A DNA stretch of 64,000 nt. It comes from Oleiphilaceae bacterium. GTDB lineage: Bacteria; Pseudomonadota; Gammaproteobacteria; Pseudomonadales; Oleiphilaceae. Numbering within the stretch: the first letter of the stretch is position 1; each line of letters opens with the position of its first letter. The position numbers were made by a program, and so were the translations under genes. Below the pieces are notes generated by a model. That model made no database searches and was not told the DNA's origin. It saw only the letters and a list, made by a program, of their open reading frames with translations. Of the stretch, positions 28,537 to 44,358 are shown piece by piece. Location: the NCBI GenBank assembly GCA_965230795.1, contig OZ246020.1:1554585-1618584 (forward strand), given 5' to 3'.

Positions 28537-28561
28537 TGATAGCCGGACCTGCTCGGTTATT

Positions 28562-28600
28562 CAGATGGCATTGGATTCTGACTACTTCCTGAGCTATCCA
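28562..28600. repeat. left copy of imperfect ~38-bp direct repeat (displaced 3' end of hxlR); left boundary of island 1
   Basis: AGATGGCATTGGATTCtGACtAcTTCCTGAGCT matches 43883-43920 at about 33 of 37 positions. The right copy encodes the C-terminus ...[12 protein letters not shown] of hxlR, whereas this copy has stops. A GC drop and AT-rich tracts begin here. Confidence 0.6.
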
Positions 28601-28890
28601 GGGGTATCAAGTGTCGAGCTGAATAATTCTGTGTGACTTGTATCGGCTTTTTTTGTTTTGATTGCTTTCCTTTCTGTTTTTTTTGCTAACTTAATTGCGC
28701 TGCTCGCAGCTTTCCAGGGATGAATTGCCTGTCTGAAAACACGGATGTACTTGATCTTGATTTGTTATTTTTAGTTTTCATCGTATTCGGTCATTTTTTA
28801 TAGCGGGTGCTCCCCTTTTATATGTCCAGTAGAATGCGCTCATTAAAAATTACATGTAAAATGTTGAAATATTACATGTAATAAAATATA

Positions 28891-29556
28891 GTGGTTTCCA
28901 TGAAAGCAAAATCATCTGCACATTATCAGCGTGAATATCGCAAACGCCTGCGAGAGCAGGGTTTGGTTAAAAAGGAGGTGTGGATACTTCCGGAAAACGC
29001 GAAGCGCCTTTCTGCCTACGAGAAAGTGCTTCGGTCGCGTGTTTCGGGGGAGTCTGCCCAGTTTGATTTTCAATTAGGAGTGAGTGGAATGAGCAATGAT
29101 TCAGATAGTGTCTTGAAAGCCTGGACGACTGAGGGCTTGTTGGATGCCTTGGGTAAGGAGTCCTTGGTTAGCAGTGGCCAGGCAAGGATAGAATTAATTG
29201 ATGGGTTGGAGTCAACGCTGCTGATCGAGATGAAAGAGTATGGAGACCTTCCTGTATTTCTGACGGTTTCCGGTGAGCAGATTATTGTTGAGGCTGTCAT
29301 GTGGTCAGTGGATGAAGTGACCGATGTGGCCGCATTTAACGATGCGATTCTGCGGACTCATAAATTTTTTCCTTTATCCACAATCAGTTTGGACAAGGTC
29401 GGTGAAGAAGGAGATTACTATCACATGTTCGGGGCGTTGAGCTCGACATCTCTGCTCTCCAACGTGGTGTTTGAAATTGAAGTTTTGGCAAGCAACGTAA
29501 TTCAGGCAACAGAAGCTTATAGTGAGTTTTTGTCCGTCCCTGTGGCCGCTAACTGA
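28891..29556 (+). CDS. hypothetical protein, first gene of the PspA-flotillin cluster (possibly DUF2170/YjfI-like)
   Basis: 221 aa, acidic, no TM. It directly precedes a PspA-like gene, as yjfI precedes yjfJ in E. coli. The basic N-terminus (HYQREYRKRLREQGLVKKEV) could bind nucleic acid. Confidence 0.45.
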   Translation: MVSMKAKSSAHYQREYRKRLREQGLVKKEVWILPENAKRLSAYEKVLRSRVSGESAQFDFQLGVSGMSNDSDSVLKAWTTEGLLDALGKESLVSSGQARIELIDGLESTLLIEMKEYGDLPVFLTVSGEQIIVEAVMWSVDEVTDVAAFNDAILRTHKFFPLSTISLDKVGEEGDYYHMFGALSSTSLLSNVVFEIEVLASNVIQATEAYSEFLSVPVAAN

Positions 29557-29574
29557 TAGCGAAGGAGTGATTAA

Positions 29575-30267
29575 ATGAATATATGGGCGAAAATGATGAC
29601 TGCGCTTCGTGGAGGTGTTAACGAGGCGGGTGAGGCTCTGGTGGACAGTCAGGCCCTAAGGATTCTGGACCAGGAAGTTCGTGAGGCTTCGCAGGCTTTA
29701 CAGGATTCCAAGAACAGCTTGGCTGAGATTATGGCTCGTCAAAAGGTCGCCGAAGAGAAGTGTGCGTCCTTTAAAAAACAGATCAAAGAACACGAGGGTT
29801 ATGCTATCAAAGCGCTCGAGAAGGCGGACGAGAGGCTGGCTCGTGAAGTGGCAGAAAAAATTGCTGATTTGGAAAGCCAGTGTAGTCAAGAGCAGGAGTC
29901 TGCTGATGGCTTTGCTGCAAGTGCAGAGAAGATGCGAATGGCCATCAAGCAAACAGAGCGTAACCTTAAGCGTTTGAAGCAACAGGTTGATACGGTCAAA
30001 GCCACTGAGAATGTTCAGCGGGCGCAGGCAGCAGTGGCTGAGCGTCACAGTGGCTCGCACTCAAAAATGAGGACAGCAATGGATTCACTTGATCGGATCA
30101 AAGATAAACAAGCGCTGAAGGCAGCGCAGATGGCTGCGGCGAGTGAGTTGGCAGAACAGACCTCCGACGTCTCGCTGCAGGCGAAACTTGAAGAAGCTGG
30201 CATCGCTGGAAGTGGCAGTAGTGCCGACGATATTCTGGAGCGCTTGAAGAGCAAAGCTTCTAAATAA
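29575..30267 (+). CDS. PspA/IM30-family protein (ESCRT-III superfamily)
   Basis: MNIWAKMMTALRGGVNEAGEALVDSQALRILDQEVREASQALQDSKNSLAEIMARQKVAEEK... An all-helical coiled-coil of 230 aa typical of PspA/YjfJ. Confidence 0.8.
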   Translation: MNIWAKMMTALRGGVNEAGEALVDSQALRILDQEVREASQALQDSKNSLAEIMARQKVAEEKCASFKKQIKEHEGYAIKALEKADERLAREVAEKIADLESQCSQEQESADGFAASAEKMRMAIKQTERNLKRLKQQVDTVKATENVQRAQAAVAERHSGSHSKMRTAMDSLDRIKDKQALKAAQMAAASELAEQTSDVSLQAKLEEAGIAGSGSSADDILERLKSKASK

Positions 30268-30298
30268 AACGTGAAAAATCAATAAGGAGGAGTCGGGA

Positions 30299-30988
30299 AT
30301 GTTTGCGATATTTTTGATGGATGACATGGATCCGTTTTACCAGAACATTGCGTCATTTCCGACTGTAATTTTTACCTTTCTATTATTGCTCGTCGTGCTT
30401 TACTGGTTGGTGGCAGTTTTGGGATTGATAGACATCGATGTGCTCGATTTTGATATACCTGAAGCAGATGGAATGGACATCAATCCAGATACGGGCTTGA
30501 CTAATGCCAACGTGCTGGCCGGGCTCATGCTGCGTTTTGGACTTCATGGTGTTCCGGTAACGATTATTCTGTCGTTCATCGCGTTATTTGGCTGGTTTGT
30601 TTGTTACTACGCAGTTCATTTTCTCATGGGGATCATTCCGGAGGGCTTGCTCGCTTTTCTGGCGGGTATCCCGGTTTTTTTTGCATCCCTTTATGTTTCA
30701 GTAATGGTAACGGCATTAGTAATCAAACCGCTGCGGCCACTTTTCAGCAAGGCGTCTCAAGACACCTTGAAAAGGGTACTGGGTCAGACGGCGATCGTTC
30801 GTACCTCGCGTGTTGACAATAATTTTGGGGAAGCAATTCTCGAGGATGGTGGCGCTGGTTTACTTCTCAAAGTGAGAACGATTGGCGAGACAACTTTCTC
30901 AAGGGGAGACAGGGTTGTGCTGCTTGAATATGACAAAGAAAAAAATACTTACCGTGTAATTTCTGAAGAAGAATTTGCCGGTAGCTAA
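30299..30988 (+). CDS. NfeD-like membrane protein (YqiJ/YuaF-like, flotillin partner)
   Basis: Four or five TM helices, then a C-terminal OB-fold NfeD domain (GQTAIVRTSRVDNNFGEAILEDGGAGLLLKVRTIGETTFSRGDRVVLLEYDKEKNTYRV). It immediately precedes the flotillin gene. Confidence 0.7.
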   Translation: MFAIFLMDDMDPFYQNIASFPTVIFTFLLLLVVLYWLVAVLGLIDIDVLDFDIPEADGMDINPDTGLTNANVLAGLMLRFGLHGVPVTIILSFIALFGWFVCYYAVHFLMGIIPEGLLAFLAGIPVFFASLYVSVMVTALVIKPLRPLFSKASQDTLKRVLGQTAIVRTSRVDNNFGEAILEDGGAGLLLKVRTIGETTFSRGDRVVLLEYDKEKNTYRVISEEEFAGS

Positions 30989-31025
30989 CAATCAAAAAAT
31001 TTAATCTGGTAATGGAGTAACCGTT

Positions 31026-32975
31026 ATGACCGAGAGTTTGCCGTTGTTGATGCCTATTCTATTTGGCGTCGGAATTTTCTTTATCATTTTGATGGGGTTG
31101 GCCGCGCTCTTCAAAGCTTTCTATATCAAGGTAGAGCAGGGCACAGCCCTTATCGTAAACGACATGTCGTCGAAACCGAAAGTGCATTTCACCGGCGCAC
31201 TGGTATATCCGATCATTTACAAAAAAGAGTTGATGCGCATTTCGCTTATCACTCTGGAAATAGATCGTCGAGGCAAAGATGGTTTGATCTGCGCAGACAA
31301 TATGCGAGCGGATATCACTGTCGCATTCTATCTGCGGGTGAATGAAACCGCTGAGGACGTTTTAAAGGTTGCCAAATCAATCGGTTCAAGTCGTGCTTCC
31401 GATAAAGACGCGGTCAATGAGCTTTTTAACGCGAAGTTTTCTGAAGCCTTGAAGTCGGTTGGTAAGCAGGTTGAATTTGTCCAGCTGTTTGAAAACAGGC
31501 AAAAGCTGAGAGATTCAATTGTTGAGTGTATTGGCAACGATCTGAATGGTTATGTTCTTGAGGATGTGGCCATTGATTATCTGGAGCAAACACCCAAGTC
31601 CGCTCTGGATCCTCACAATATTCTTGATGCGGAAGGTATTCGCAAGATTACAGAGCTCACCGCCACACAAAATGTACAAACCAACAATTATGAGCGAGAT
31701 GAAGAACTCGCCATCAAGAAAAAGAACGTTGAGACAGTGGAAGCGATGTTATCACTGGAGCGTCAGCAGGCAGATGCGGAAGCCAAACAGGAGCGTGAGA
31801 TCGCTACGTTGCGTGCGCGCGAAGAAGCTGAAACCAAGAAAGTCCAGGAGGAGCAGCGCAAGATTGCAGAGGAAACCACAATCAAGGTGGAGCAGGAGTT
31901 GCAAGTTGCTGCAGAGAACCAGAAGCGGGAAATCGAAGTTGCGGAACAGAATCGTCTTCGCGCCGTCGCGATTGAAGAAGAAAAAGTGGTTCGTGCTAGA
32001 GATCTGGAAGTCGTCGACAGGGAGCGTCAGGTTGAGCTGGACAAAATCGCCGCTGAAAAAGCCCTGGAGGTTGAAAAGAAAGAAATTGCCAACGTTATCC
32101 GTGAGCGAGTTGCAGTAGACAAAACGGTTGCGGTTGAAGAGGAGCGTATAAAAGAAGTACGTGAAGTCTCAGAGGCAGATCGACAGAAGCAAACGCAGGT
32201 GCTGGCTGCGGAGGCTGCGGCTGAAGAAGATAAAGTCAAGCAAGTAAAAGCCGCAGAGGCAGAGGAAATCGCGGCGAAACACAAAGCAGTCGAGATCACG
32301 ACGATTGCTCAGGCGGAGCTCGAGGAAGCAGCCAAAAAAGCGGATGCGAAGAAGAAATTGGCCGAGGGTACACAGGCAGAAAGGGCCGCGCCAGGCTTGG
32401 CTGAAGCAAAAGTACAGGAAGCGAAAGCGGCTGCCCTGGAGAAAGAAGGACGTGCTGAAGCGGAAGTTATAAGAGCCAAAGGTGATGCAGAGGCGGATGC
32501 CTTGTCTGGTACAGGTAAGGCGCAGGCAGATGTGACCGCAGCACAGGGTGACGCTGAAGCACAAGCGGCCAGACAGTTAGGTCTCGCAAACGCAGAAGTT
32601 ACTCGTGAGCAGTTTAAAGCGGAAGCCGATGGTTTGGTTGAAAAGTTTGAGGCCATGAACACGATGAGTGAGGATGCTCGAGAGCACGAAGAGTACCGAA
32701 TGGGACTGGAGACTGCGCTGAAAGAGGCATTGGCATCTATCGAGGCTGGTAAAGATATCGCTAAAGAAAATGCCGAAGTGCTTGCCGTGGCCCTGCAGAA
32801 GGCGAAGATTGATATCGTTGGTGGTGAAGATCACTTCTTCGATAATTTCGCCAAGTCACTTTCAATTGGTAAGGCGGTAGATGGTCTGGCCGGTAAGAGT
32901 GATACGATTCAGTCACTGATCGATAGGGTGATTAGCGGCAAGAAGCCGACGGTTGTGGACGCAGAAAACGACTAG
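31026..32975 (+). CDS. flotillin-like SPFH/band-7 protein (FloT/YqiK-like) with long EA-rich coiled-coil
   Basis: N-terminal TM hairpin; SPFH domain (QGTALIVNDMSSKPKVHFTGALVYPIIYKKELMRISLITLEIDRRGKDGLICADNMRADITVAFYLRV). Extended flotillin E/A repeats follow (AEAKQEREIATLRAREEAETKK...). Confidence 0.85.
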   Translation: MTESLPLLMPILFGVGIFFIILMGLAALFKAFYIKVEQGTALIVNDMSSKPKVHFTGALVYPIIYKKELMRISLITLEIDRRGKDGLICADNMRADITVAFYLRVNETAEDVLKVAKSIGSSRASDKDAVNELFNAKFSEALKSVGKQVEFVQLFENRQKLRDSIVECIGNDLNGYVLEDVAIDYLEQTPKSALDPHNILDAEGIRKITELTATQNVQTNNYERDEELAIKKKNVETVEAMLSLERQQADAEAKQEREIATLRAREEAETKKVQEEQRKIAEETTIKVEQELQVAAENQKREIEVAEQNRLRAVAIEEEKVVRARDLEVVDRERQVELDKIAAEKALEVEKKEIANVIRERVAVDKTVAVEEERIKEVREVSEADRQKQTQVLAAEAAAEEDKVKQVKAAEAEEIAAKHKAVEITTIAQAELEEAAKKADAKKKLAEGTQAERAAPGLAEAKVQEAKAAALEKEGRAEAEVIRAKGDAEADALSGTGKAQADVTAAQGDAEAQAARQLGLANAEVTREQFKAEADGLVEKFEAMNTMSEDAREHEEYRMGLETALKEALASIEAGKDIAKENAEVLAVALQKAKIDIVGGEDHFFDNFAKSLSIGKAVDGLAGKSDTIQSLIDRVISGKKPTVVDAEND

Positions 32976-33065
32976 GGGTAATCCTCCTGAACTGTCCGAA
33001 TGGCAAGTTGGGTGTCTTTGAGATTCTCGACTTGTTTCCACCATCGTTAAAAAAGGAAAAAGTTC

Positions 33066-36000
33066 ATGGAACAGCATGATCTGTCGGCTGACAATGGAGC
33101 CAATTTAGTTGATCAAGCCGTTGCAGAAGGTGGTGCTTACGAAGTAATCCGCAAGCGCCTGGTTCAACAAAGCAAGCAGTTGTCAGATGTTACCTCTGCG
33201 TTAAATGCCGGTCGCCTGAATGAGTTCGGCAGTTCGGACATGGAAGTGATCGGTCGAGTACGGGTGCGTACCGAGAATAACTGCATCGCCAGGGATATTG
33301 TTCAGGTGGGGCCTCACCTGCTGTTCGGATATAACGTTTTCATCGGATTGAAAAAAGAAACTGCGGTTAGTGATGTATTTGCTCTTTTTGATGTCAAACA
33401 GACGGAGCAGGGTTTTGATCTCGAATCTGTCGACTTGGATAATTCTTTCCTGGCACATCCGGGGTTCGTCAACGACTTTGATGAACTGTATCGCTATTAC
33501 AAAAATACGCGCTTAATCCAGTTGCGGGTCAAGGACGGAAAGCTGCTCGCGGGTTTCCAGATTGGTGAGCGTCTCAGTGATGTGCGGGTTTTTCGCTGGG
33601 CTTTGTCTCCTGATGGCCAGGTTGAATATATTGACAATCGTGGTGAAAGGGATCTTGAGTTACCTTCACCCTACGATTTTGAATGGACGTTTACAACAAG
33701 GGATGACAGCGTTCAGGGGCGCCATCCCCATATTAATGTGCTCGATACGGTTTTTGTTGAGACCACTGATGGCGATTTGACCATTAAGGTAGAAAATAAC
33801 ACGGAAAATGGTCTAGGGATTTATAGCGAGCCTGTGGAAGACAAAACCCAATCTTTGGATGATGCCCAGATTGCCTATGCGAGCGTAGGCGGATTGATAC
33901 TTCTGAAGATAAGACCCTATCGGGAGGAGGCTTGGCGTTATCTTATTTTTAACACTGTCACTCAGGAAGTCGTGCGACAGGATGCGATTGGTGAATCATG
34001 CGTCCAGTTACCTGAGGATCACGGCATCATTTTCCCAGGCGGTTATTATTTGCAGTCGGGTGAGAAGAAGGCGTTTGATGATGGTGTGACGGGGCTTAAA
34101 TTCAAAAGAGTGCTGCGGTCTCCCAACGGCGAGGACGTGTTATACGTCTTTTACCAACCGGAAGAGGGTATGGTCGGTCTTTTCGCCTACAACCTGATCG
34201 AAAAGCAATTACAGAATCCGGTTTATGGACACGGCTATGCCTTGGCAGAGGACGGTAGCCTGGTTATTTTTCAAGCTGAGGAAGAACCAACCAGAGTGCA
34301 TCCCATGCAGATCTGGAAAACCCCGTATGAGAGTGTGGAGCATGCGAGTAAAGCTCCTCCAAGTCAGACGTTTTTCGGGCGTATCGGTAACGCAGAGCTG
34401 GTTCGTGGAATCTCCGATCTCTACAGTATTTGTCGTCTGGTCGACAATCAGTCAGTGTCGCTGCGGCAATACGAAGAGCTAAGCAGAGCGGCGAAAAAAA
34501 TCTTCGATGATCATTACTGGTTGGAGGAGGCTGAGACCAGTAAGATCGCTTCATGTGTCAGGGATATATGTGCTACTTCGGAGCTGGTCATTGATGAGTT
34601 TGAGAAGGTTGAGAGCATTCGGGAACAGTCTGCCAAAACCATGTCTGAAGCTTTTCACGATCAGGAGACGCTGCTCGCCGAAGCGCGGCCCGATAACTGG
34701 GAGCTTGCAGAAGAGTATGTGGATGCGTTGAGCAAAGTGCGTAAACAGCGCGGTCATTTGGTGGGTATCAAATCGCTGCGCTACATCGATGTTGCGCGCA
34801 TCGAGGCGATGGAGAATGAGCTGACAGAGAGGGAGCATGAGCTCACGCAGGCGACGGTTGAGTTTCTGTCTGATGAAAAAGCCCTTAATCCCTATCATGA
34901 AAAAATTGCGGGTCTCCAGGCCGATATTGATAAATCCGAGACCAAGGCTGAGTTGTCCCCGTTAATCGAGGCCGTTGAAAAAACTGCCGCGGGTCTGGAT
35001 CTGCTCTCGGAAATCATGGGGGCACTTAAGGTAGATGATGCGACTGTTCGAACTCGCATCATTGATGCTGTCACTGAGGTTTACGCAAAGCTAAACCAAA
35101 CTAAAGCCGCTGCAACGCGGAAGAGCAAATCTCTTGGTTCGTCGGAAGCGGTTGCCCAGTTTTCTGCTCAGTTCAAACTTTTTTCACAGACCATTGCCAA
35201 TGCACTTGGGGTTTCCAACACTCCTGAAAAGTGCGATGAACAGTTATCGCGCCTGTTAATTCAACTAGAGGAATTTGAAAGTCAATTCAGTGATCATGAC
35301 CAGTTTCTCGCGGACATCATGGAGAAGCGGGAAGAGGTCTATGAATCCTTCGAATCCCATAAACAGCAACTCTTGGATGAGCGACAGCGCAAGGCTCAGA
35401 CCCTGGCCGATGCGGCAAACCGTATTCTGGGCAACATAGAAAAGCGCTCGCTGAAGTTCACCGAGAAAGACGATTTAAATACCTATTTCGCTTCAGATGC
35501 CCTGGTTATCAAAGTGCGCGAGCTGGTTTCTGAATTGCGGAATTTGGACAATGCAGTCAAAGCTGACGATTTGGAATCTCGTTTCAAGGCGATCAAAGAA
35601 CAGTCACTACGATCCCTGCGCGACAAAACAGAGATCTATGAGGCGGGTGGAAATGTCATCAAGTTGGGGCCTAGACATCGCTTTTCCGTGAATACCCAAG
35701 ACCTGGATCTTACCATCATTCCACGTAATGGGATTCTCAATATCCACCTGACCGGTACGGATTATTTTGAAGCTATTCATTATTCAGAACTGATGCAGCT
35801 CAAAGACTATTGGGACATGTCGCTCGAGTCTGAAACATCAGCAGTGTATCGTAGTGAGTACCTGGCATATCGTGTCATAGAGGCAGCACAGAACAACCAG
35901 CAGGGATTGAGCATGCCAGCTTTGATGCAGTCTATCAAAGATGATGAGTTTTCGGGCCTGGTGAAGGACTTTGCTGCCCCGCGCTATAAGGAAGGCTACG

Positions 36001-38468
36001 AAAAAGGCATTCACGATTATGATGCGACCTTGATACTAAAAGCCTTGCTGCCTTCTTTGCATATGGCAGAGCTGTTGAAGTATGACTCGACAAGCAGAGC
36101 CGTGGCACAGGTTTTCTGGTCCCACACGACTCGAGCTATAAAGGATAACAAAGATCGAAGAGTCCATGACCAATCCGCAGATGTCTGGTTGAAAACAGCC
36201 GTGACGTGGCCAGTCCGTGCCCGAGCTGCTATGCAGCTGAATAGCAGTCTGTCCAGTCGTAAAGCTGTAGATCTGTTGGCTCAGGAGATTCTTGATTACC
36301 TCAAGTCGTTTTTAGAAAAACATCCAATCGAAATTCCGAATCATACTATTAGACAGGCTGCTTACTATCTGGTTGACGAGTATGGTCGGGACGACTTTGC
36401 GTTCGTTACAAGTCAGTATGGTTTGGATTTGGTAGAAGAGCTGAAGCGCAGCACGAATGACTTAGCCTGGAATACCTTTGTAGCTTCTCTGCGTGAACTG
36501 GATTCAAACCCTGCCGAAAAGTGGAAAGTCGCTGAGGCTTGGCTGCAGGCGATGGTCGATTCGTTGCCACAAGACAACGAAACTCAGGCTAAGAAAGGTC
36601 GTTATCTTGCCGAGGCGATAGCTCTTCTTGTTGAGCCTGATAGCGTTCCGCGCCGGACCAGCAATGTGGAGCTTGAACTGCTTGTCGAAGGCTTGCTTGG
36701 CGAGCATGCTCGCATATCCAAACAGCGTATGGCTGTCGGAGTTGACGATTTTCTGTCCCGGATGAAACATCATTGTGAGGAAGTAATACCGGCCTATCAG
36801 CACTATCTTCGTACCCGTCAGGAGGTCATCTCAAAAGAGAGAGAGGCTTTGAGGCTGGAAGAGTTCAAAGCGCGGCCACTAAGTTCATTTGTACGCAACC
36901 GCTTGATCAATGAATCCTATCTTCCCTTGATCGGCGATAATCTGGCTAAACAAATGGGAACGGTCGGAGAAAACAAACGATCCGATTTGATGGGTCTGCT
37001 AATGATGATTTCGCCACCAGGTTATGGCAAAACGACATTGATGGAGTATGTCGCCAATCGCCTGGGCTTGATTTTCATGAAGATCAATTGCCCTTCCTTG
37101 GGGCATGATGTGTTGTCTCTGGACCCCCAGCAGGCTCCGAACGCAACGGCAAGACAAGAGCTCGAAAAGCTCAACCTGGCGCTGGAGATGGGAAATAATG
37201 TGATGCTTTATCTGGATGATATTCAGCATACTCATCCAGAATTTCTGCAGAAATTTATCTCCCTGTGTGATGGCACCAGACGTATTGAAGGTGTCTGGAA
37301 AGGGAAAACCAAAACCTATGATATGCGCGGACGCAAGTTCTGTGTGGTAATGGCAGGTAATCCCTACACGGAATCTGGTGAAGCCTTCAAAGTACCCGAC
37401 ATGCTGGCAAACCGGGCAGATATCTACAACCTTGGCGATATTCTAGGCGGCATGGATGAACAGTTTGCGCTCAGTTATGTGGAGAATGCTCTGACTTCAA
37501 ATGCTGTATTGGCGCCTCTTGCAGTCAGGGAAATGGGGGATGTTTACAAACTGATTGATATGGCAAAGGGCAAAGAAATTGCAACCACTGATCTGAGCCA
37601 CCAATACAGCGGTGCTGAAATTAGTGAAATCACAGAAGTTTTGAAAAAGATGTTTGTGATTCAGGACGTGGTTCTCAAGATCAATAAACAATACATAGCA
37701 TCCGCTGCTCAAAACGATAAGTACCGGACTGAACCCAGCTTCAAGTTACAGGGCAGCTATCGCAATATGAACAAAATGAGTGAGAAGCTTTCGGCTGTCA
37801 TGAACGATGCAGAGCTTATGCAGATGATTGAAGATCATTATCTAGGGGAAGCCCAGCTGCTGACTTCAGGCGCAGAAGATAATCTTTTGAAGCTTGCTGA
37901 ATTGCGCGGAAATATGACAGATGAGCAGTCAGCCCGCTGGCAAGAAATCAAACGTGATTTTCTTCGTGATAAAGCTATGGGAGGCGATAGCGCTGATGTG
38001 GGAGCAAAAGTCGTCGCTCAGCTCGTAGACATCGTAAGTGGACTGCGAGATCTCAAGGCTGTCGCGCAAGAGGCGGTTGAACGTGGTGACACAAAAGACG
38101 CGGAACAGGTGAATGAGACTCCGCGGCAGGACATGCTAACCCTGGAGCAGCTTTCTCGAGAAATGGACAAACTGGTTGGTGCTCTAAAGAGCCACCGACC
38201 AAACGTGGAAGTGGTAAACCAGCCGGTACCCGGCATCGACAAGATTCTTTCTGTATTGGCAGATTCCATTGAGCATAGTTTGATGCCCGTTGTTAAGAGC
38301 ATGGACAAGAAGCTCGATATTGATTTGCGAACGCATTACAAGTTGAGAGATGTGTCTGAACAGCTGAGGAATCTTGAGCATGCTATAGGGCTTGAGGATC
38401 ACAAGTCCGGAACAAGTTCTCTGCGCACGGATACGGAAGATTCGGATCTCCAAAGCCGGGAAGAATAG
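33066..38468 (+). CDS. giant (1800 aa) multidomain protein with AAA+ ATPase of the AAA_5 (MoxR/dynein/McrB-like) type near the C-terminal third
   Basis: RBS aaaaggaaaaagttcATG. Walker A MMISPPGYGKTTLMEYV; Walker B VMLYLDDIQHTHPEF; sensor/arginine region FCVVMAGNPYTESGEAFKVPDMLANRADIYNL. The N-terminal ~450 aa are a beta-rich globular region, followed by about 700 aa of helical and coiled-coil sequence. No TM segments. Confidence 0.7.
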   Translation: MEQHDLSADNGANLVDQAVAEGGAYEVIRKRLVQQSKQLSDVTSALNAGRLNEFGSSDMEVIGRVRVRTENNCIARDIVQVGPHLLFGYNVFIGLKKETAVSDVFALFDVKQTEQGFDLESVDLDNSFLAHPGFVNDFDELYRYYKNTRLIQLRVKDGKLLAGFQIGERLSDVRVFRWALSPDGQVEYIDNRGERDLELPSPYDFEWTFTTRDDSVQGRHPHINVLDTVFVETTDGDLTIKVENNTENGLGIYSEPVEDKTQSLDDAQIAYASVGGLILLKIRPYREEAWRYLIFNTVTQEVVRQDAIGESCVQLPEDHGIIFPGGYYLQSGEKKAFDDGVTGLKFKRVLRSPNGEDVLYVFYQPEEGMVGLFAYNLIEKQLQNPVYGHGYALAEDGSLVIFQAEEEPTRVHPMQIWKTPYESVEHASKAPPSQTFFGRIGNAELVRGISDLYSICRLVDNQSVSLRQYEELSRAAKKIFDDHYWLEEAETSKIASCVRDICATSELVIDEFEKVESIREQSAKTMSEAFHDQETLLAEARPDNWELAEEYVDALSKVRKQRGHLVGIKSLRYIDVARIEAMENELTEREHELTQATVEFLSDEKALNPYHEKIAGLQADIDKSETKAELSPLIEAVEKTAAGLDLLSEIMGALKVDDATVRTRIIDAVTEVYAKLNQTKAAATRKSKSLGSSEAVAQFSAQFKLFSQTIANALGVSNTPEKCDEQLSRLLIQLEEFESQFSDHDQFLADIMEKREEVYESFESHKQQLLDERQRKAQTLADAANRILGNIEKRSLKFTEKDDLNTYFASDALVIKVRELVSELRNLDNAVKADDLESRFKAIKEQSLRSLRDKTEIYEAGGNVIKLGPRHRFSVNTQDLDLTIIPRNGILNIHLTGTDYFEAIHYSELMQLKDYWDMSLESETSAVYRSEYLAYRVIEAAQNNQQGLSMPALMQSIKDDEFSGLVKDFAAPRYKEGYEKGIHDYDATLILKALLPSLHMAELLKYDSTSRAVAQVFWSHTTRAIKDNKDRRVHDQSADVWLKTAVTWPVRARAAMQLNSSLSSRKAVDLLAQEILDYLKSFLEKHPIEIPNHTIRQAAYYLVDEYGRDDFAFVTSQYGLDLVEELKRSTNDLAWNTFVASLRELDSNPAEKWKVAEAWLQAMVDSLPQDNETQAKKGRYLAEAIALLVEPDSVPRRTSNVELELLVEGLLGEHARISKQRMAVGVDDFLSRMKHHCEEVIPAYQHYLRTRQEVISKEREALRLEEFKARPLSSFVRNRLINESYLPLIGDNLAKQMGTVGENKRSDLMGLLMMISPPGYGKTTLMEYVANRLGLIFMKINCPSLGHDVLSLDPQQAPNATARQELEKLNLALEMGNNVMLYLDDIQHTHPEFLQKFISLCDGTRRIEGVWKGKTKTYDMRGRKFCVVMAGNPYTESGEAFKVPDMLANRADIYNLGDILGGMDEQFALSYVENALTSNAVLAPLAVREMGDVYKLIDMAKGKEIATTDLSHQYSGAEISEITEVLKKMFVIQDVVLKINKQYIASAAQNDKYRTEPSFKLQGSYRNMNKMSEKLSAVMNDAELMQMIEDHYLGEAQLLTSGAEDNLLKLAELRGNMTDEQSARWQEIKRDFLRDKAMGGDSADVGAKVVAQLVDIVSGLRDLKAVAQEAVERGDTKDAEQVNETPRQDMLTLEQLSREMDKLVGALKSHRPNVEVVNQPVPGIDKILSVLADSIEHSLMPVVKSMDKKLDIDLRTHYKLRDVSEQLRNLEHAIGLEDHKSGTSSLRTDTEDSDLQSREE

Positions 38469-38479
38469 GGCATTCCAGA

Positions 38480-39073
38480 ATGTTCCCCGGTCTTTGGCTC
38501 AAATTCAGGCTGCTCATTTGTTTGTTAGCGGTCATGATTGGGGTTCATGCGGTGAATATGACGCTGGACGGACAGCTTATTCAATACGGGATTATTCCAA
38601 GGTCAGAGGAACATTGGTTTCATGTGTTCATCTCACCTTTCATTCATGTTGATCACGTTCATTTGCTTAACAATTTGTTCGGGCTGGCAATATTCAGCGT
38701 TCTTTGCCTAATGCGTTCGGTAGGACTGTATATCCTCTGCAGTATTTTTGTTATCACCTCAACAGGTTTATTGGTGTGGTTGTTCGCTCGCAGCGCCATT
38801 CACCTTGGTGCTAGTGGTTGGATATTTGGTTTATGGAGTTTTGCCATTGCGATTGCCTGGTTTGATCGGAAATTGATAAACATTGTTTCCAGTTTTCTGG
38901 TGGTCTTTTTATATGGGGGGATGATTTACGGCGTATTGCCTAGTGATCCAAATGTTTCTTTTGAAGCTCATCTTTTTGGCGCTTTGTCAGGTGCGTTGTT
39001 TGCATTTTTTTATTCAGTGTATGTGAAAGCCACGCGGCGTTCTCAATCACGGTCTTCAGTGGCGGGGAACTGA
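38480..39073 (+). CDS. rhomboid-family intramembrane serine protease
   Basis: Six TM helices; catalytic GxSG (IHLGASGWIFGL) in TM4 and His (AHLFGALSGALFAFF) in TM6. Confidence 0.75.
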   Translation: MFPGLWLKFRLLICLLAVMIGVHAVNMTLDGQLIQYGIIPRSEEHWFHVFISPFIHVDHVHLLNNLFGLAIFSVLCLMRSVGLYILCSIFVITSTGLLVWLFARSAIHLGASGWIFGLWSFAIAIAWFDRKLINIVSSFLVVFLYGGMIYGVLPSDPNVSFEAHLFGALSGALFAFFYSVYVKATRRSQSRSSVAGN

Positions 39074-39075
39074 AA

Positions 39076-39924
39076 GTGCTTGCTTGGCTGATTGAAAAGA
39101 TAAAAGACTATTCCTCGTTCACCGATTCCAAGGTGATCATTCAGTGGCAGGCTGGATGGTCTGACTTTTTGAGTGAAACGGTAACGTTTTATCGAACGCT
39201 AGACTCCGAGGACAAGAGAGTGTTCGAGGAACGCGCTCGACTGTTTCTGGAAACCACGACTATTGAAGCTGGACAGTTTGAAGTGAGTGATGAAGATCGC
39301 TTGCTGGTTGCGTCGAGTGCGGTGATTCCTGTTTGGGGTTTTCCGGATTGGCATTACTTTAATGTCAGTAAGGTGTTTCTATTGCCTGCATCGTTTAACG
39401 AGCGTTTCGAATGTGGTCAGCCCGATTCTGTGATCACCGGAATGGTGGGTAGCGGCCCTATGTCGGGAAAGCTTGCTCTGAGCCGTGCTGCTTTGCATCA
39501 GGGTTTCAAGAATGACGAGGACAAGCACAACGTGGGCATTCATGAGTTTGTGCATCTGGTGGACATGGCCGATGGCGATTGCGATGGGTTCCCGGAGCGG
39601 CTTAAGAAATATGCCTACTCGATTCCATGGTTTGAGCTTGTAGAGAAGAAAATTAGCGGGATCGAGACGCGTCGTAGCAATATTCGCGACTATGGTGCTA
39701 CCAACAAAGCAGAGTTTTTGGCCGTCGCATCAGAGTACTTTTTTGAACGGCCCGAAATGATGCAGAAAAAGCATCCTGAGCTTTATCAGGCACTGTCCGA
39801 TTTCTACCAACAGGATGTAATGCGAATTGCTTTGGATATCAGGCCCAGAAAGAAGGCTACTTGTCCATGTGGGAGCGGTAAGAAATATAAACACTGTTGC
39901 ATGAAAAAAATTCAGCGCAAGTAA
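39076..39924 (+). CDS. MtfA-like zinc metallopeptidase (peptidase M90) fused to C-terminal SEC-C zinc-binding motif
   Basis: HExxH (GIHEFVHLVDMADGDCDGFPE) and an MtfA-type C-terminal block (AEFLAVASEYFFERPE...LYQALSDFYQQD). The final residues CPCGSGKKYKHCCMKK are a canonical SEC-C motif. GTG start directly after the rhomboid stop. Confidence 0.8.
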   Translation: MLAWLIEKIKDYSSFTDSKVIIQWQAGWSDFLSETVTFYRTLDSEDKRVFEERARLFLETTTIEAGQFEVSDEDRLLVASSAVIPVWGFPDWHYFNVSKVFLLPASFNERFECGQPDSVITGMVGSGPMSGKLALSRAALHQGFKNDEDKHNVGIHEFVHLVDMADGDCDGFPERLKKYAYSIPWFELVEKKISGIETRRSNIRDYGATNKAEFLAVASEYFFERPEMMQKKHPELYQALSDFYQQDVMRIALDIRPRKKATCPCGSGKKYKHCCMKKIQRK

Positions 39925-39956
39925 TGGTGGCAACAAATACTCTAAAGGAGACGGTG

Positions 39957-40502
39957 ATGAAATGTCCCCAATGCAAAGGTTATGAGCTTGAGCCGAAAGA
40001 ACTGGAGCCAGGTCTGATTGTTGGTGCCTGTTCGAAATGTAATGGTACCTTGGTATCACTGATGAACTATCGCTATTGGGCGGATCAGCAGGGCAGTCAC
40101 GCGTTAGCTGAGCCGCTCGAAAACGATGACGTATCGGAAGCTGAAGATAATGCAAAGGCTCAGGTCTGTCCCAAATGTGCCAAGTTGATGACAAAGTTTC
40201 AGATCGGTGCGGAATCTTCGAACCGCTTGGACCTTTGTACGGGATGTGATGAGGCATGGCTCGATAAGGGTGAATGGAAGTTATTGAAGCAACTGGATCT
40301 GGCAGATAAATTGCCCTCAATTTTTACCGACGCCTGGCAACGTAATATCCGGTTGGCGAGGCAGGAAAAACTGCACAAGCGACGATACGAAAAATTGTTG
40401 GGAACTGATGACTTCACAAAACTGAATGAATTCAAACAATGGCTCGAACTGCATCCTGAAAGAGAACAAATTAAGCAGTATTTGATAACGAAACTGGATT
40501 AG
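39957..40502 (+). CDS. double zinc-ribbon protein
   Basis: CPQCKG...CSKCNG and CPKCAK...CTGCDE pairs, each CxxC-N17-18-CxxC, with a helical C-terminus. Start at the ATG 6 nt after AAGGAG. Confidence 0.55.
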   Translation: MKCPQCKGYELEPKELEPGLIVGACSKCNGTLVSLMNYRYWADQQGSHALAEPLENDDVSEAEDNAKAQVCPKCAKLMTKFQIGAESSNRLDLCTGCDEAWLDKGEWKLLKQLDLADKLPSIFTDAWQRNIRLARQEKLHKRRYEKLLGTDDFTKLNEFKQWLELHPEREQIKQYLITKLD

Positions 40503-40524
40503 CGGATTAAACAGGCAAAGCGAA

Positions 40525-40821
40525 ATGATTGAACTCAGAGAGTGGGTGTCTGCCATCATTTTCTGTACGGGCGTTGCAGGTATCTGTGTGCTTGTTGCCA
40601 ACGAACTGACTTGGTCACTTGTTTGGGCTAGCGTACTGTGCTTTGTATTGGCTTATTTGATCTGGCCAAGCAAAAGGAAAGGGCAGCGGCATGATGACAA
40701 TCGGTTGGCTGACATACTCGAAATACTGATTGAGTTTCCCATGGAGCTTTTTAGTTGGTTGATTCGCTTTTTGGGACGTCTTCTCGGCAGCAAAGGCGAA
40801 GGTATCGATATTGACATTTAA
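40525..40821 (+). CDS. small two-TM membrane protein
   Basis: 98 aa with two hydrophobic helices, between the zinc-ribbon and PLD genes on the same strand. Confidence 0.35.
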   Translation: MIELREWVSAIIFCTGVAGICVLVANELTWSLVWASVLCFVLAYLIWPSKRKGQRHDDNRLADILEILIEFPMELFSWLIRFLGRLLGSKGEGIDIDI

Positions 40822-40838
40822 AAGGATCATTCTGCGTT

Positions 40839-41537
40839 TTGAGTAAACATACGAGAATTGAAGAGTTCCTTTGCGTTTCGTTTGAAGATTTCAAGCTCTC
40901 CCAGGGCGAGAAATATTCGTTGAGAGAGCTTTTGGATAACTTGGGAGACAATGAGCTGTTGTCGTTTGCCCGTAATAAGGCCTTTGATTTATATCGGGAG
41001 TACCATATTGCCGAGTCTGGGGATTCTCTGCAGGGTCTCAACTGGTTGGAGAAAGTTATCAAAACGATCGATAACGTCAGGCTAAACAGCATCGAGTCCA
41101 ACTCTTACGCGTATTTTAGTCCAGGTCCTGAATGCGCCAGGCAGATCATCAACTGCTTGCATGGCGCAAGAGAAACCATTGATATATGCGTGTTTACGAT
41201 CTCCGACAATCATATTACTGACGCGATTCTATCAGCACACGAGACTGGGAAGAGTGTTCGCATCGTGAGTGATAATGATAAAGCAAAAGATAGTGGCTCC
41301 GATATTTACTATCTGGCTGAAAAAGGTGTGCCGGTCCGGCTAGATAAAAGTCCCTACCATATGCATCATAAGTTCGCGATTTTTGACCAAAATCTGCTGA
41401 TCAATGGCAGCTTTAATTGGACTCGAAGTGCCACCATGAAGAACGAAGAAAATATAACCGTTCTGCATGATTCAGGCTTGATCGGCTCTTTTTTATCTTC
41501 CTTTGAGGAATTGTGGTCAGAGTCGAAAGATATATAG
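40839..41537 (+). CDS. phospholipase D-like (single HKD motif, Nuc/endonuclease-type) protein
   Basis: HMHHKFAIFDQNLLINGSFNWTRSA is a canonical HxK(x)4D(x)6GSxN motif present in one copy (dimeric Nuc-like). The listed start is TTG; the real start is uncertain. Confidence 0.7.
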   Translation: MSKHTRIEEFLCVSFEDFKLSQGEKYSLRELLDNLGDNELLSFARNKAFDLYREYHIAESGDSLQGLNWLEKVIKTIDNVRLNSIESNSYAYFSPGPECARQIINCLHGARETIDICVFTISDNHITDAILSAHETGKSVRIVSDNDKAKDSGSDIYYLAEKGVPVRLDKSPYHMHHKFAIFDQNLLINGSFNWTRSATMKNEENITVLHDSGLIGSFLSSFEELWSESKDI

Positions 41538-41561
41538 ATCGACCTGTACAAGGGAGCGTAT

Positions 41562-41831
41562 ATGAAAACCAAATTGACTCTAATTGTTTTATTGGTCGCG
41601 TTACTATCTGGATGCGACAAAATAAACCGGGCTAGCCGCACTATGGATACAGTGCTTGGTGGTGATTTCAAAGTCTACGTGTTGGGGATCGATAAACCAT
41701 TTGTCGTCAACAATGGAAAAGTAACGTCGATACCGGAAAAGGGTTACTACGTTTTTTACCCGGTGATCGATGGTAGGGAACGCTTGGTACAATCCCCCAT
41801 TCAGATTACGACCATTGTAAAAATGGACTAA
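41562..41831 (+). CDS. small lipoprotein
   Basis: Lipobox LLVALLSGCDK; 89 aa. Confidence 0.5.
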   Translation: MKTKLTLIVLLVALLSGCDKINRASRTMDTVLGGDFKVYVLGIDKPFVVNNGKVTSIPEKGYYVFYPVIDGRERLVQSPIQITTIVKMD

Positions 41832-41893
41832 TGTAAGTCACCGGGAACGTGTATGATCTTGTCGTATGTCTTGCTCAAAAGAGAATTCCTAAA

Positions 41894-42484
41894 TTATGGG
41901 TTCATCTCTTTTTGACTGGTTTTATATTGTTCTACCGGAATGATCCGGTACCCGTCTGCAATGTCTTTAATCAATACACCCATGTTGCTAATTTTCTTCA
42001 TGCTGTAAATGTATGCGATCAGAAGCACCAGAGCCAATATGCATAGCCCCGCAATGGAAATGACTATCCACAGTTCAATTTTGGAAACTAGCGGAGATAT
42101 CGTTTCTTCTTTTATCTGAGCTAGTGAGTTTTGCAGTATCTTTGCAGCGGGTTTTTCAGTCTCTCTGATTGTGTTGGGAAGATTGTGTATTGTTGCATTG
42201 AGCTGCTTGCTGATGGCACCAACTTTATCCGCAAGTTCATTGATCAGTAAAAGTTGTTCGGGTGAACGGTCTCCCAGGTCTGCGGATATAGTGTTCAATG
42301 CTGTAGCAAGTTCATTGGTCGCTTTCCTGAGAATCACTCCGGATTCTTTGAGTTCCTTTATCTCGATATGGATCGATACGTATTTAGCTTCATCGTTTCC
42401 TTCGATCATGTTGCCATTACTTTCCGCTATAGAGCTGATGGATACAAAAGTCAGCGCTACCAGCATCAGGTGTTTCTTGATCAT
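41894..42484 (-). CDS. hypothetical exported protein with C-terminal TM anchor
   Basis: Signal peptide, helical periplasmic region, and a C-terminal TM (ELWIVISIAGLCILALVLLIAYIY). Confidence 0.4.
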   Translation of the reverse strand: MIKKHLMLVALTFVSISSIAESNGNMIEGNDEAKYVSIHIEIKELKESGVILRKATNELATALNTISADLGDRSPEQLLLINELADKVGAISKQLNATIHNLPNTIRETEKPAAKILQNSLAQIKEETISPLVSKIELWIVISIAGLCILALVLLIAYIYSMKKISNMGVLIKDIADGYRIIPVEQYKTSQKEMNP

Positions 42485-42501
42485 TGAGAATGCTCCGTTG
42501 T

Positions 42502-43662
42502 TTACGCTGGATTGAAAGAGCGGGAATCATCGACCGTTATTGTGCCTAGTGCTGGCGTGGAAAGGTCTAAACCTTCGCTGATTGAGGCGGCATAAACCGC
42601 TTCGTTCACTTTATAGACTGATCCCATTAAGTGTTTCCGTATTTTGGCCGTAACTTTGGTGTTGGGGATGCGCTCTAGGTAAATCCAAAGCGTATATTCG
42701 AGAGCGAAATCTCCCGCATTGGTCATTGCCCATTCGAAGCCTCGACTGGAGTTAACAGTTATGTCGGGCTTCTCCTTGCTGGCCTTCTGGGCCTGAGTGA
42801 ACATACGATCAACTCGCGAGGTGAATGCCATTAGTTGCTTACTTCTTTCTTCTTTGCTTTGACCTTCAAATGTTGGGTAGCCGATTTTGTATTTGAGAGC
42901 CTGGCGAATACCATCTGTACTGGCAATGCGACTCAAGTTGTCGATCTTATTGCGAATAAACTGGTTGTTACGTATCAGCGTTCTGTGATTGTTTCTTACG
43001 TCATACAGAATGACATAGATAAGTGTCACTTTGCTGATAACGTATTCGTCGGGATGGCCATCAACAAGAACGACATCGCCATCTACCAGCATTTCGGTAT
43101 TGAGAATAATGAGCCCGCTAATGATATCTGGTGCCCAAATGCTGCTGGTAAAGGCGAGAAAAGCGAAGACGATACCGAAAATTCCGGTTGTTTCCAGCAT
43201 GCTGTCAGCACCCCATATTTTTATCAGGGTGTATATCGTCGTAAGTACGATGACCATCAATAGAATGATGTCGACCAGACGACTGCTGTAACTGTCCAAA
43301 TACATGGTAGTGCCATCAAGGCTTTTTTCTATTCCGAAGCGTTTGCGCGACAGGTAGCAGCAAAGGCTATAAGCGAACAAACCGCCATACACTGTCATCA
43401 GGCTGAGGCCCACACGGATGAAGTAATGCTCGTAGCTTTTGTTCAGGCCCAGAAAAGTGAGATCGATGGCGTGGAGAATTAATACCAGAATATTAAGAGC
43501 TCTGAAGATACTGACTTTGGTCTCGTTTTCCTTGTCAGGATCGATGAGTCTCACGATAGGGCGAGCGCAAACCAGCAAGCCAATATTCAGGAGAAATACT
43601 GTGAGGTGCAGCAGCCATTGAGTATGACTCAGAGAAGGCAGAAAATCGGTAAGTGTATCCAA
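42502..43662 (-). CDS. MscS-family mechanosensitive channel
   Basis: N-terminal TM helices plus the MscS pore/beta domain (GIVFAFLAFTSSIWAPDIISGLIILNTEMLVDGDVVLVDGHPDEYVISKVTLIYVILYDVRNNHRTLIRNNQFIRN). Confidence 0.8.
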   Translation of the reverse strand: MDTLTDFLPSLSHTQWLLHLTVFLLNIGLLVCARPIVRLIDPDKENETKVSIFRALNILVLILHAIDLTFLGLNKSYEHYFIRVGLSLMTVYGGLFAYSLCCYLSRKRFGIEKSLDGTTMYLDSYSSRLVDIILLMVIVLTTIYTLIKIWGADSMLETTGIFGIVFAFLAFTSSIWAPDIISGLIILNTEMLVDGDVVLVDGHPDEYVISKVTLIYVILYDVRNNHRTLIRNNQFIRNKIDNLSRIASTDGIRQALKYKIGYPTFEGQSKEERSKQLMAFTSRVDRMFTQAQKASKEKPDITVNSSRGFEWAMTNAGDFALEYTLWIYLERIPNTKVTAKIRKHLMGSVYKVNEAVYAASISEGLDLSTPALGTITVDDSRSFNPA

Positions 43663-43880
43663 AACTTCAAAGCTCCTTGTTTTTGTAAATCACAGTATTC
43701 CTTTTGGAAGCTGGGCGCAGTAGTGAGTAAGGTCCTGCATGTCCCGCTGTCTTTATCATTACCCGTTTACTCTTGCATCGTTGAGACATAGCGCTTTTAA
43801 AAGTCGATAAACAAGGTGATATCGAAGGCTGGTTTTGGTTTATCTAAATTAGACAAAAACGCTAGACCACAAAAATTATC

Positions 43881-44237
43881 TTAGATGGCATTGGATTCCG
43901 ACCATTCCCTGAGCTGCTCCAAAATGTCGAGGGCGGAGCGACCGAAGTCGCTTAATTCGTAGGTGACGGCCACAGGTCGCTCGTTGATGACTTTTCGAAT
44001 CACCATGTTTCTGGCTTCCAGTTCTTTCAGACGCTGATCAATCATTTTCTTGCTGGCGCCGCCCAGCATGCGGGTCAGATCATTGAATCGCACCGGTCCG
44101 TCTTTGAGGTGATAGATGATGGAGCCGGTCCACTTACCGCCGATAATGCGCATACCACGCTCGACCGAGCAGGGTTCCATGCAGGCGTTCAAAACTTTTT
44201 TTCGTCCTTTACTATCTGTTTCTACTCGAGATTTCAA
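43881..44237 (-). CDS. HxlR-family transcriptional regulator
   Basis: [36 protein letters not shown]...; winged-helix HxlR signature. Divergent from mdaB. Confidence 0.85.
43883..43920. repeat. right copy of ~38-bp direct repeat (functional 3' end of hxlR); right boundary of island 1
   Basis: See 28562-28600. It lies inside the last 13 codons of hxlR. Confidence 0.6.
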
Positions 44238-44254
44238 CGAAATTCCCTCATAAG

Positions 44255-44267
44255 TAACCAGGTTACC
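44255..44267. promoter_or_regulatory. 13-bp perfect palindrome GTAACCaGGTTAC in the hxlR-mdaB divergent region (candidate HxlR operator)
   Basis: Inverted repeat with a 1-nt spacer. A second GGTAACC...GGTTGAC half-site pair lies about 35 bp downstream. Confidence 0.35.
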
Positions 44268-44358
44268 AAAAGTATACTAATTGATTTAGATCTACAGGTA
44301 ACCAAAATATACCACTGGTTGACGAGATATTCCATGTTCAATAATCGAGGACAATCTA

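Follow-up and report, generated by a model that had tools for sequence, protein, structure and literature searches.

The window analysed here—a stretch of 64,000 nucleotides from an Oleiphilaceae bacterium (contig OZ246020.1, positions 1,554,585 to 1,618,584 of the forward strand)—carries a gene cluster whose core, judged by sequence, is the known Bac operon, in which a PspA homologue and a flotillin are encoded together with a giant ATPase. Eleven open reading frames called on the plus strand occupy positions 28900–41831 of the window with intergenic gaps of 2–90 bp, two minus-strand genes converge on this run, and all 13 lie inside one 15.3 kb block of low GC content at third codon positions (GC3). 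A preliminary description of the same DNA had the coordinates and strand of the run right but counted nine genes; the run, which also includes a 98-residue protein with two transmembrane segments and an 89-residue lipoprotein with an LSGC lipobox, holds 11. The start of its first gene, earlier placed at GTG 28891, is ATG 28900.

The first five genes and the phospholipase D (PLD) gene are orthologues of Pseudomonas aeruginosa bacABCDEF (PA3732–PA3727, or PA14_16140–16200), which encode a DUF2170 protein, a PspA protein, a YqiJ-like protein, a flotillin-like protein, a giant ATPase, and a PLD protein (PMC2587700, PMC10948618). Macé and colleagues (2008) defined PA3729–PA3732 and found the PspA-like PA3731 to be induced by hyperosmotic shock, with the PA3731 mutant being defective in biofilm formation, swarming, rhamnolipid production, and virulence. 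Wallart and colleagues (2024) established by reverse transcription PCR in strain PA14 that bacABCDEF is a six-gene operon, solved the structure of BacA, and observed by proteomics in the same strain that the other Bac proteins over-accumulate in a bacA mutant. PA3728–PA3732 are also up-regulated by lytic phage infection. On a broader scale, Ravi and colleagues (2024; mSystems, PMC11237479) describe an operon class comprising CesT/DUF2170, PspA, YqiJ-like, band-7/flotillin, and novel AAA+ proteins, with or without a PLD protein, and report that abbreviated flotillin and YqiJ operons, some with the ATPase, are likewise widespread. For the core genes, both bacABCDEF and this operon class thus contradict the earlier view that their coupling had not been described. 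As regards the window itself, we infer co-transcription of the run from its 2–90 bp gaps and a single strong promoter-like site.

Proteins of the block and their conservation

The bacA orthologue (28900–29556, plus strand) encodes an N-terminal domain of about 46 residues, a disordered linker, and a DUF2170/CesT-like chaperone domain (Pfam DUF2170, E 1.1e-50), and scores 303.5 bits against the NCBIfam equivalog 'biofilm formation regulator BacA', for which the cut-off is 300. Its AlphaFold2 (AF2) model, with a predicted local distance difference test (pLDDT) value of 79.5, matches the P. aeruginosa BacA crystal structure 8Q8O in Foldseek with an E-value of 3.5e-16, a template-modelling score TMt of 0.97, and 51% identity. 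After a gap of 18 bp follows the bacB orthologue (29575–30267, plus), encoding PspA/IM30 of the ESCRT-III superfamily (Pfam PspA_IM30, E 3.6e-48). The next two genes on this strand are the bacC orthologue (30299–30988), for a 229-residue membrane protein that is probably YqiJ/YuaF-like (NfeD-type) and ends in an OB-like domain, and the bacD orthologue (31026–32975), for a 649-residue flotillin-like protein consisting of a transmembrane segment, an SPFH/band-7 domain, and a long EA-rich coiled coil.

Both of these proteins had been named NfeD-like and flotillin in the preliminary description, and the names are backed by profile comparison, more tentatively for NfeD-like than for flotillin, but not by Pfam, NCBIfam, or the PDB: neither BacC nor BacD matches any Pfam or NCBIfam family even at E ≤ 10, and searches of the PDB by sequence or profile return only chance matches. 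Profiles built from 25–26 orthologues were compared by hhalign with YqiJ and YqiK of Escherichia coli MG1655. The BacD profile aligns with YqiK at 99.9% probability (E 9.6e-34; 404 columns, YqiK residues 18–439) and that of BacC with YqiJ at 84% (E 7.6e-6; 140 columns), with no match of BacC to Pfam YqiJ_N, YqiJ_OB, or NfeD. As a control, YqiK itself matches Band_7/Flot and YqiJ itself matches YqiJ_N/YqiJ_OB.

The fifth gene, the bacE orthologue (33066–38468, plus), encodes an 1800-residue AAA+ protein in which Pfam delimits DUF3686 (residues 39–484)—a region that Ravi and colleagues report as β-propeller repeats (PMC11237479)—and DUF7902 (605–688), followed by a long helical middle and one AAA+ module (about 1300–1480); Pfam detects no MIT or Vps4 domain. 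All of the 75 BacE sequences compared keep Walker A (GYGKT), Walker B (hhhDD), N1432, and several arginines, R1450 among them, unchanged, and because these catalytic motifs are invariant, BacE is probably an active enzyme. Within the module, residues 1312–1435 or so match AAA, AAA_22, and AAA_5 in Pfam, the last with E 2e-5 over model positions 2–125 of 139. This coverage makes the earlier assignment to an AAA_5-type ATPase plausible; however, hhalign also pairs BacE with RavA (8%), McrB (61%), RuvB (95%), and FtsH (88%), always briefly and around the P-loop only, and its matches to classical AAA proteins, in the PDB profile search as in hhalign, span some 35 residues round Walker A. An AF2 model of the C-terminal 576 residues, made with 10 close homologues, has a pLDDT of 49 and is unusable for a fold search. 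The family is large, with more than 6370 clusters at E ≤ 1e-10 among 8000 candidates scored.

Both the description of PF12458 and the source annotations call such proteins 'DNA repair ATPase', which would place the cluster in DNA metabolism and make its PLD protein a nuclease. That name, however, has no supporting paper in the searchable literature, in which 'DUF3686' yields none, and the flotillin and YqiJ-like proteins that are the invariable partners of the ATPase in every locus are membrane proteins; for these two reasons, the annotation was rejected. The Walker A matches to RuvB that speak for it are weak, the likeness spanning about 43 residues round the P-loop, and the resemblance of the PLD protein to the nuclease NucT is below threshold. 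A role in DNA repair is thus scarcely credible.

Downstream of bacE, the plus strand encodes a rhomboid intramembrane serine protease (38480–39073; Pfam Rhomboid, E 1.1e-18; HxxxN, GASG, and H intact) and, beginning 2 bp past its stop codon, an M90 (MtfA-like) zinc metallopeptidase with a C-terminal SEC-C motif (39076–39924; M90 E 8e-59, SEC-C E 1.4e-7; HEFVH). A double zinc-ribbon protein with a C-terminal helical domain follows (39957–40502; Pfam Zn_ribbon_TFIIB, E 3.1e-7; two CxxC pairs, twice), its start being most likely ATG 39957 with 39897 as the alternative. The 98-residue protein with two transmembrane segments (TM98; 40525–40821) has no family match, and a weak homologue occupies the same position in locus L004. 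The bacF orthologue (40839–41537) encodes a cytoplasmic single-HKD PLD-superfamily phosphodiesterase with an N-terminal domain of about 100 residues (PLDc_2, E 6.9e-28), in whose translation the motif HHKFAIFD...GSFN can be read; matches to NucT and DrmC (NCBIfam, PADLOC) fall below threshold, and the substrate may be DNA or phospholipid. As in BacF, the catalytic motifs of the rhomboid and M90 proteins are intact in the translations. The final plus-strand gene encodes the predicted 89-residue lipoprotein (41562–41831), for which no homologue was found in 82 loci. Pfam thereby confirms most of the families named in the preliminary description, namely the DUF protein (DUF2170), PspA_IM30, Rhomboid, Peptidase_M90, SEC-C, the zinc ribbon, and PLDc_2.

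The two convergent minus-strand genes encode a 196-residue protein with a signal peptide, a coiled coil, and a C-terminal transmembrane segment (41894–42484), without a homologue in the compared loci, and a divergent MscS-like membrane protein (42502–43662). The latter scores 17.4 bits against MS_channel_2nd, for which the cut-off is 20.2, and aligns with E. coli MscS in register by hhalign at E 0.19, with no significant match in the PDB profile search. It had been described as an MscS channel on the opposite strand; the strand is right, but at these scores the MscS identity is tentative.

To place the window among its relatives, 80 genomic loci were fetched with the ATPase as anchor and all window proteins were mapped on to them, with the counts below taken from the 69 loci that have full flanks. 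Flotillin is linked to the ATPase in 69/69 loci and the YqiJ-like protein in 68/69, so that the triad of YqiJ-like protein, flotillin, and ATPase is essentially universal among loci. PspA, which is adjacent to bacA, is linked in 53/69 and BacA in 51/69, followed by the rhomboid (33/69, at varying positions), PLD (28/69), the double zinc ribbon (19/69), the MscS-like protein (4/69), and M90/SEC-C (2/69). The genes form one conserved functional neighbourhood, a point that the preliminary description had proposed to check. Pseudomonas loci L029–L042, including P. paraeruginosa L039, have an identical core gene order. Identities of the window proteins to Pseudomonas loci are 42–48% for BacC and 63–66% for BacD (tblastn), 56–58% for the ATPase, and 44–50% for PLD. 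In L039, PLD directly follows the ATPase, whereas five genes stand between or after bacE and bacF in the window. The nine-gene order of the window, minus PLD, recurs in Teredinibacter sp. KSP-S5-2 (L001).

It may be asked whether only the bacABCDE(F) core is functional, with the rhomboid, M90/SEC-C, zinc-ribbon, TM98, lipoprotein, coiled-coil, and MscS-like genes being passengers. The rhomboid, PLD, and zinc-ribbon genes are linked far above chance, even when gene order changes: the rhomboid gene, for instance, is found upstream in L046 and L073 (Kangiellaceae) and is encoded on the other strand in L015 and L059, yet stays linked. M90 genes follow the rhomboid gene in five other loci (L001–L003 and L089/L090, or about three to four independent genomes), in which the called genes overlap slightly, and in L001–L003 occupy the same slot between rhomboid and zinc ribbon. 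MscS-like homologues of 49–64% identity adjoin the ATPase in L008, L015, L059, and L069; in three genomes besides that of the window, such a gene stands directly after the ATPase gene. All the genes at issue, moreover, lie within one repeat-bounded insert. The passenger view draws instead on the rarity of some of them—outside the window and L089/L090, M90 is linked in just two of the 69 full loci, TM98 recurs in a single locus, and neither the lipoprotein nor the coiled-coil protein recurs at all—and on the 10/69 loci that have no linked BacA, PspA, rhomboid, M90, zinc ribbon, PLD, or MscS-like gene at all. Weighing both, a purely passenger role for the whole accessory set is improbable.

Two further features of the compared loci were observed. 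L089 and L090 are the closest metagenomic relatives, with a BacA 75% identical to that of the window, and each encodes a canonical MscS with all three Pfam domains directly upstream of bacA on the same strand (L089:8389–9237, L090:4412–5260). A protein of about 79 residues (MSExRDYLEMxFRSIxCFAxDGxLDxxEL...RDGVIDxNExRVL) is encoded in 18 bac loci (e.g. L001:17288–17524, L030:9610–9849), after the flotillin, ATPase, or zinc-ribbon gene, and is not found in the window.

Candidate operator, predicted promoter and the N-terminal domain of BacA

Immediately upstream of bacA lies a candidate dual palindromic operator (28848–28883, plus strand), composed of AATTACATGTAAAA (28848–28861) and TATTACATGTAATA (28870–28883) at 22 bp start to start and containing two perfect TTACATGTAA palindromes (28850–28859 and 28872–28881). 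These copies flank the −35 element and occupy the spacer of a predicted sigma70-type promoter (28864–28892, plus; TTGAAA-17-TATAGT, 10/12), which is the top sigma70-like site in 28400–44300. The −10 element ends 7 nt ahead of ATG 28900, and a leaderless or nearly leaderless mRNA is therefore implied. A search of 28480–29921 for the sigma54 pattern TGGCAC-N5-TTGCW with up to three mismatches found no site.

The arrangement is widely conserved. In a first pass over aligned bacA upstream regions, 42 of 54 loci had the same layout of palindromes, −35, and −10, with a consensus of T-A-T-T-ACATGT-A/G-A-T-A occurring twice, 21–26 bp apart (mode 22), a TTGAC-like −35 between the copies, a TAnnnT −10 directly after copy 2, and the ATG about 7 nt further on. 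Its specificity was assessed by scanning 1.9 Mb across 82 loci for ACATGT pairs spaced 21–26 bp. The scan found 49 pairs. All but one of them fall in the 120 bp ahead of the BacA N-terminus, these 48 being spread over 43 of 47 loci, and the exception precedes a truncated bacA; in the remaining four of the 47 bacA loci, two ACATGT cores are present at different spacings. The dual palindrome is seen in Cellvibrionaceae, Pseudomonas, Arenicella, Lysobacter, and Lampropedia.

The N-terminal ~46 residues of BacA (window 28900–29040) are themselves strongly conserved (KSSAHYQREYRKRLREQGLVKKEVWILPENAKxL..EK.LR). They form a basic domain that AF2 models as helix-loop-helix-like, ahead of the disordered linker, and this domain is putatively DNA-binding; it weakly resembles the MazE-like antitoxin family PF11455, to which 13 of 21 members show a likeness, all below threshold. 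The operator covaries with this domain: in a Lysobacter-type clade whose BacA N-terminus diverges, the operator is altered too, with a single copy in the spacer and half a site overlying the ATG, and in L076, the only locus whose BacA lacks the N-terminal domain, the operator is missing as well. The crystallised BacA (8Q8O) comprises 138–139 residues and is without this domain, and the 16 kDa given for the PA3732 product in 2008 (Macé et al. 2008) suggests the same, so that the domain has been overlooked.

The simplest model is that BacA represses its own operon through an operator overlapping a nearly leaderless sigma70 promoter, and that this autorepression would be relieved by interaction of BacA with the PspA protein BacB. 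The model is suggested because the operator and the domain are conserved together and because Bac proteins are published to over-accumulate in a bacA mutant. The palindromic operator and promoter are, as far as can be judged, previously unreported and are newly inferred here.

The probable insertion of the block, and its neighbours

The block is bounded by direct repeats that had been put at 38 bp; the repeat is real, but it is imperfect and 33–35 bp long. Its left copy (28563–28597, minus strand), at the left edge of the block, repeats the final ~11 codons and stop of hxlR in degenerate form, with an in-frame TAG, and its right copy (43881–43915, minus), at the right edge, is the genuine 3′ end of hxlR (43881–44237, minus; host-like, with GC3 0.68). 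Positions 28563–28595 and 43883–43915 are identical at 29 of 33 positions—about 35 bp counting the stop codon—and by chance some 1e-4 pairs of this kind would be expected in the window. GC content is 0.467 within the block against 0.541 on its left, and GC3 is 0.46–0.53 in all 13 genes between the repeats against 0.62–0.68 in tauE, tag, and hxlR. The compositional shift noted in the preliminary description is thus borne out; the block differs from both flanks in GC3, which therefore supports insertion between tag and hxlR. Overall low GC extends past the block to about 59 kb because more mobile elements come after it. Profile searches of the block proteins revealed no integrase or transposase within 28598–43880, and Rfam and ARAGORN no RNA gene in 28–60 kb. 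Where the closest homologues of Tag are encoded (83% and 78% identity), tag is followed by a different gene in place of hxlR, which speaks neither for nor against insertion. Taken together, the repeats and the GC3 shift on either side fit the earlier view of horizontally acquired cargo, and the block was probably inserted horizontally between tag and hxlR.

A variable low-GC region beside integrative elements invites a reading as an anti-phage or abortive-infection island, and a defence role was also raised in the preliminary description. On this reading, the proteases and a PLD nuclease would serve as effectors, with the giant ATPase acting as sensor or motor. Differences in accessory gene content between loci, the phage induction of the P. 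aeruginosa operon, and the weak likeness of the PLD protein of the block to DrmC, DpdK, and NucT are in keeping with such a role. Searches of PADLOC-DB v2, however, matched no defence system, only generic components: PLD to DrmC/MkoC/DpdK, the SEC-C tail to E2 models, and the coiled coil to JetC, of which the generic PLD fold and SEC-C motif are the only shared parts to speak of. BacE is 52–80% identical across orders and the flotillin is conserved even more, unlike arms-race genes. Cluster neighbourhoods differ among genomes and include core chromosomal contexts: in Teredinibacter (L001:1–5489), the cluster lies directly downstream of dnaA-dnaN-recF-gyrB in the replication origin region, and many Pseudomonas share one position, with a recJ-like gene and common genes downstream. 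The osmotic induction and the biofilm and virulence phenotypes of the P. aeruginosa genes, for their part, fit an envelope-stress response. The defence reading thus gives way, and a primary role in immunity is very improbable.

Beyond the block, the window holds a 7.1 kb integrative element (47222–54354) between 49-nt direct repeats that are tRNA-Met-like 3′ fragments. It encodes a tyrosine integrase (53157–54281), an IS3-type transposase (52034–52852), a Cro/C1 helix-turn-helix protein (49198–49947), and, on the minus strand, a second PspA/IM30 homologue (48095–48790; E 1.3e-9). The tRNA 3′-end fragment is present in three copies (46931–46984, 47190–47243, and 54274–54327), and neither ARAGORN nor Rfam detects an intact tRNA or tmRNA gene in any part of the window, which suggests tandem or decayed integrations. 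Inverted repeats of 87 nt (52811–52897 and 55138–55224; 91% complementary) enclose 2.2 kb with the integrase gene. Further on, a perfect 42-nt direct repeat (56124–56165 and 58262–58303, 2138 bp apart), each copy with a small GC-rich hairpin, is set in an AT-rich stretch whose open reading frames have no assigned function.

A probable membrane stress and maintenance system among its relatives

The block is best explained as an extended Bac-family operon that probably serves as a cytoplasmic-membrane stress and maintenance system and not as a defence island; the membrane-remodelling role named in the preliminary description, widened to membrane stress, is accordingly the best reading of the genes. 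In the proposed mechanism, BacA dimers would bind the two TTACATGTAA palindromes through the basic N-terminal domain and occlude the sigma70 promoter, with the CesT-like domain binding the PspA-like BacB. Once damaged membrane draws BacB to itself, the balance between BacA and BacB would shift and the operon would be derepressed, a PspA/PspF-like logic achieved without PspF or sigma54. BacB would then polymerise on the inner leaflet, BacC and BacD would form a microdomain of the NfeD/SPFH cage type, and BacE would spend ATP to assemble, remodel, or recycle the BacB and BacC/BacD assemblies. The rhomboid, the M90/SEC-C peptidase, and PLD may act on membrane proteins or lipids within this microdomain, and the MscS-like channel may link the module to tension and osmotic stress.

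Several points weigh against this reading. The biochemical function of all Bac proteins is known by homology only. With regard to BacE, its short matches do not point to one AAA+ clade, and its Walker B motif ends in DD, not DE. The N-terminal domain of BacA resembles a DNA-binding or antitoxin family at sub-threshold scores, its AF2 confidence is only moderate, another regulator could bind the palindromes, and the P. aeruginosa authors proposed a sigma54 promoter. The M90/SEC-C, TM98, lipoprotein, and coiled-coil proteins are rare or unique and may be passengers, and the PLD protein BacF could act as a nuclease. No empty tag–hxlR insertion site was found among relatives.

A bolder, joint version of the membrane-stress reading, unlikely to hold in all its parts, links three proposals. 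In it, BacA would be a repressor-chaperone whose N-terminal domain binds the dual TTACATGTAA operator at a leaderless sigma70 promoter and is titrated by BacB; BacE would act on PspA and flotillin assemblies as the functional equivalent of Vps4 in bacteria; and the flotillin cage would, by analogy with SLP2–PARL–YME1L, organise the rhomboid, M90, and PLD proteins as a hub. A 2025 review states that a Vps4-like ATPase is apparently absent in bacteria and that the control of PspA polymerisation is open (PMC7619361). Among candidates for an ATP-driven PspA/SPFH machine, the Bac-type operon stands out most clearly, and it is very widespread, with more than 6000 ATPase protein clusters.

Of the systems compared, ESCRT-III/Vps4 shares with the window an ESCRT-III-superfamily polymer, PspA, encoded beside an AAA+ ATPase. 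The comparison, made in the preliminary description, had been put forward before by Ravi and colleagues, who already proposed ESCRT-III/Vps4-like ATP-dependent remodelling (PMC11237479); it is an analogy only, as BacE lacks a Vps4 or MIT domain, has 1800 residues with DUF3686, and shows no detectable classical-clade pore-loop motif. The HflK/C–FtsH complex and the mitochondrial SLP2–PARL–YME1L hub (Wai et al. 2016, cited in PMC8624314) similarly combine an SPFH scaffold with an AAA+ protein, a rhomboid protease, and a zinc metalloprotease. BacE, however, has no protease domain, the metallopeptidase is M90 and not M41, and the window counterpart is known from its genes alone.

The classical Psp response (PspF–PspABC, sigma54) resembles the window system in its PspA/IM30 effector, in osmotic and phage induction, and in probable negative feedback via a PspA-binding regulator. 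It differs in that the block has neither pspF, pspB, or pspC genes nor a sigma54 site; in their place stand a sigma70-type promoter with palindromes and a putative regulator that is CesT-like with a small N-terminal domain. The adjacent pairs YqiJ–YqiK of E. coli and YuaF–FloT of Bacillus subtilis are homologous to BacC–BacD, tentatively so for BacC, and share their order, although the window proteins have diverged too far to be recognised by the Pfam Band_7, Flot, and YqiJ models. A pair of the window type is, furthermore, always followed by the giant ATPase, whereas E. coli and B. subtilis have no ATPase at that locus.

The operon class of Ravi and colleagues has the same architecture as the window, including the optional HKD phospholipase D. 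Their main text and one supplementary file do not mention the rhomboid or M90/SEC-C, and the passages of the paper that bear on these operons are silent on an MscS-like partner, on the operator, and on the N-terminal domain of BacA (PMC11237479). Literature combining flotillin, rhomboid, and PspA likewise yielded no rhomboid linkage, and the accessory set of rhomboid, M90/SEC-C, double zinc ribbon, small transmembrane protein, and MscS-like protein is new to the searchable literature.

The closest relative is the P. aeruginosa Bac system, whose six proteins all have counterparts in the window, with gene order and strand preserved; as seen in the closely related P. paraeruginosa (L039), the dual palindrome and promoter layout is shared as well. 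In the window, the rhomboid, M90/SEC-C, double zinc-ribbon, TM98, and lipoprotein genes are extra, two convergent membrane genes are added, and the host is a marine gammaproteobacterium in which the cluster lies on a low-GC3 insert between direct repeats; P. aeruginosa itself has no rhomboid gene, whereas many other Pseudomonas species do. Intramembrane and peripheral proteases and mechanosensitive-channel-like proteins are thus added to the Bac system as recurrent partners, along with a regulatory hypothesis—operator, leaderless sigma70 promoter, and BacA N-terminal domain—that differs from the P. aeruginosa sigma54 model. The cluster is therefore not a new kind of system, and its added value over the known one resides in these accessory partners, the operator and promoter, and the N-terminal domain of BacA.

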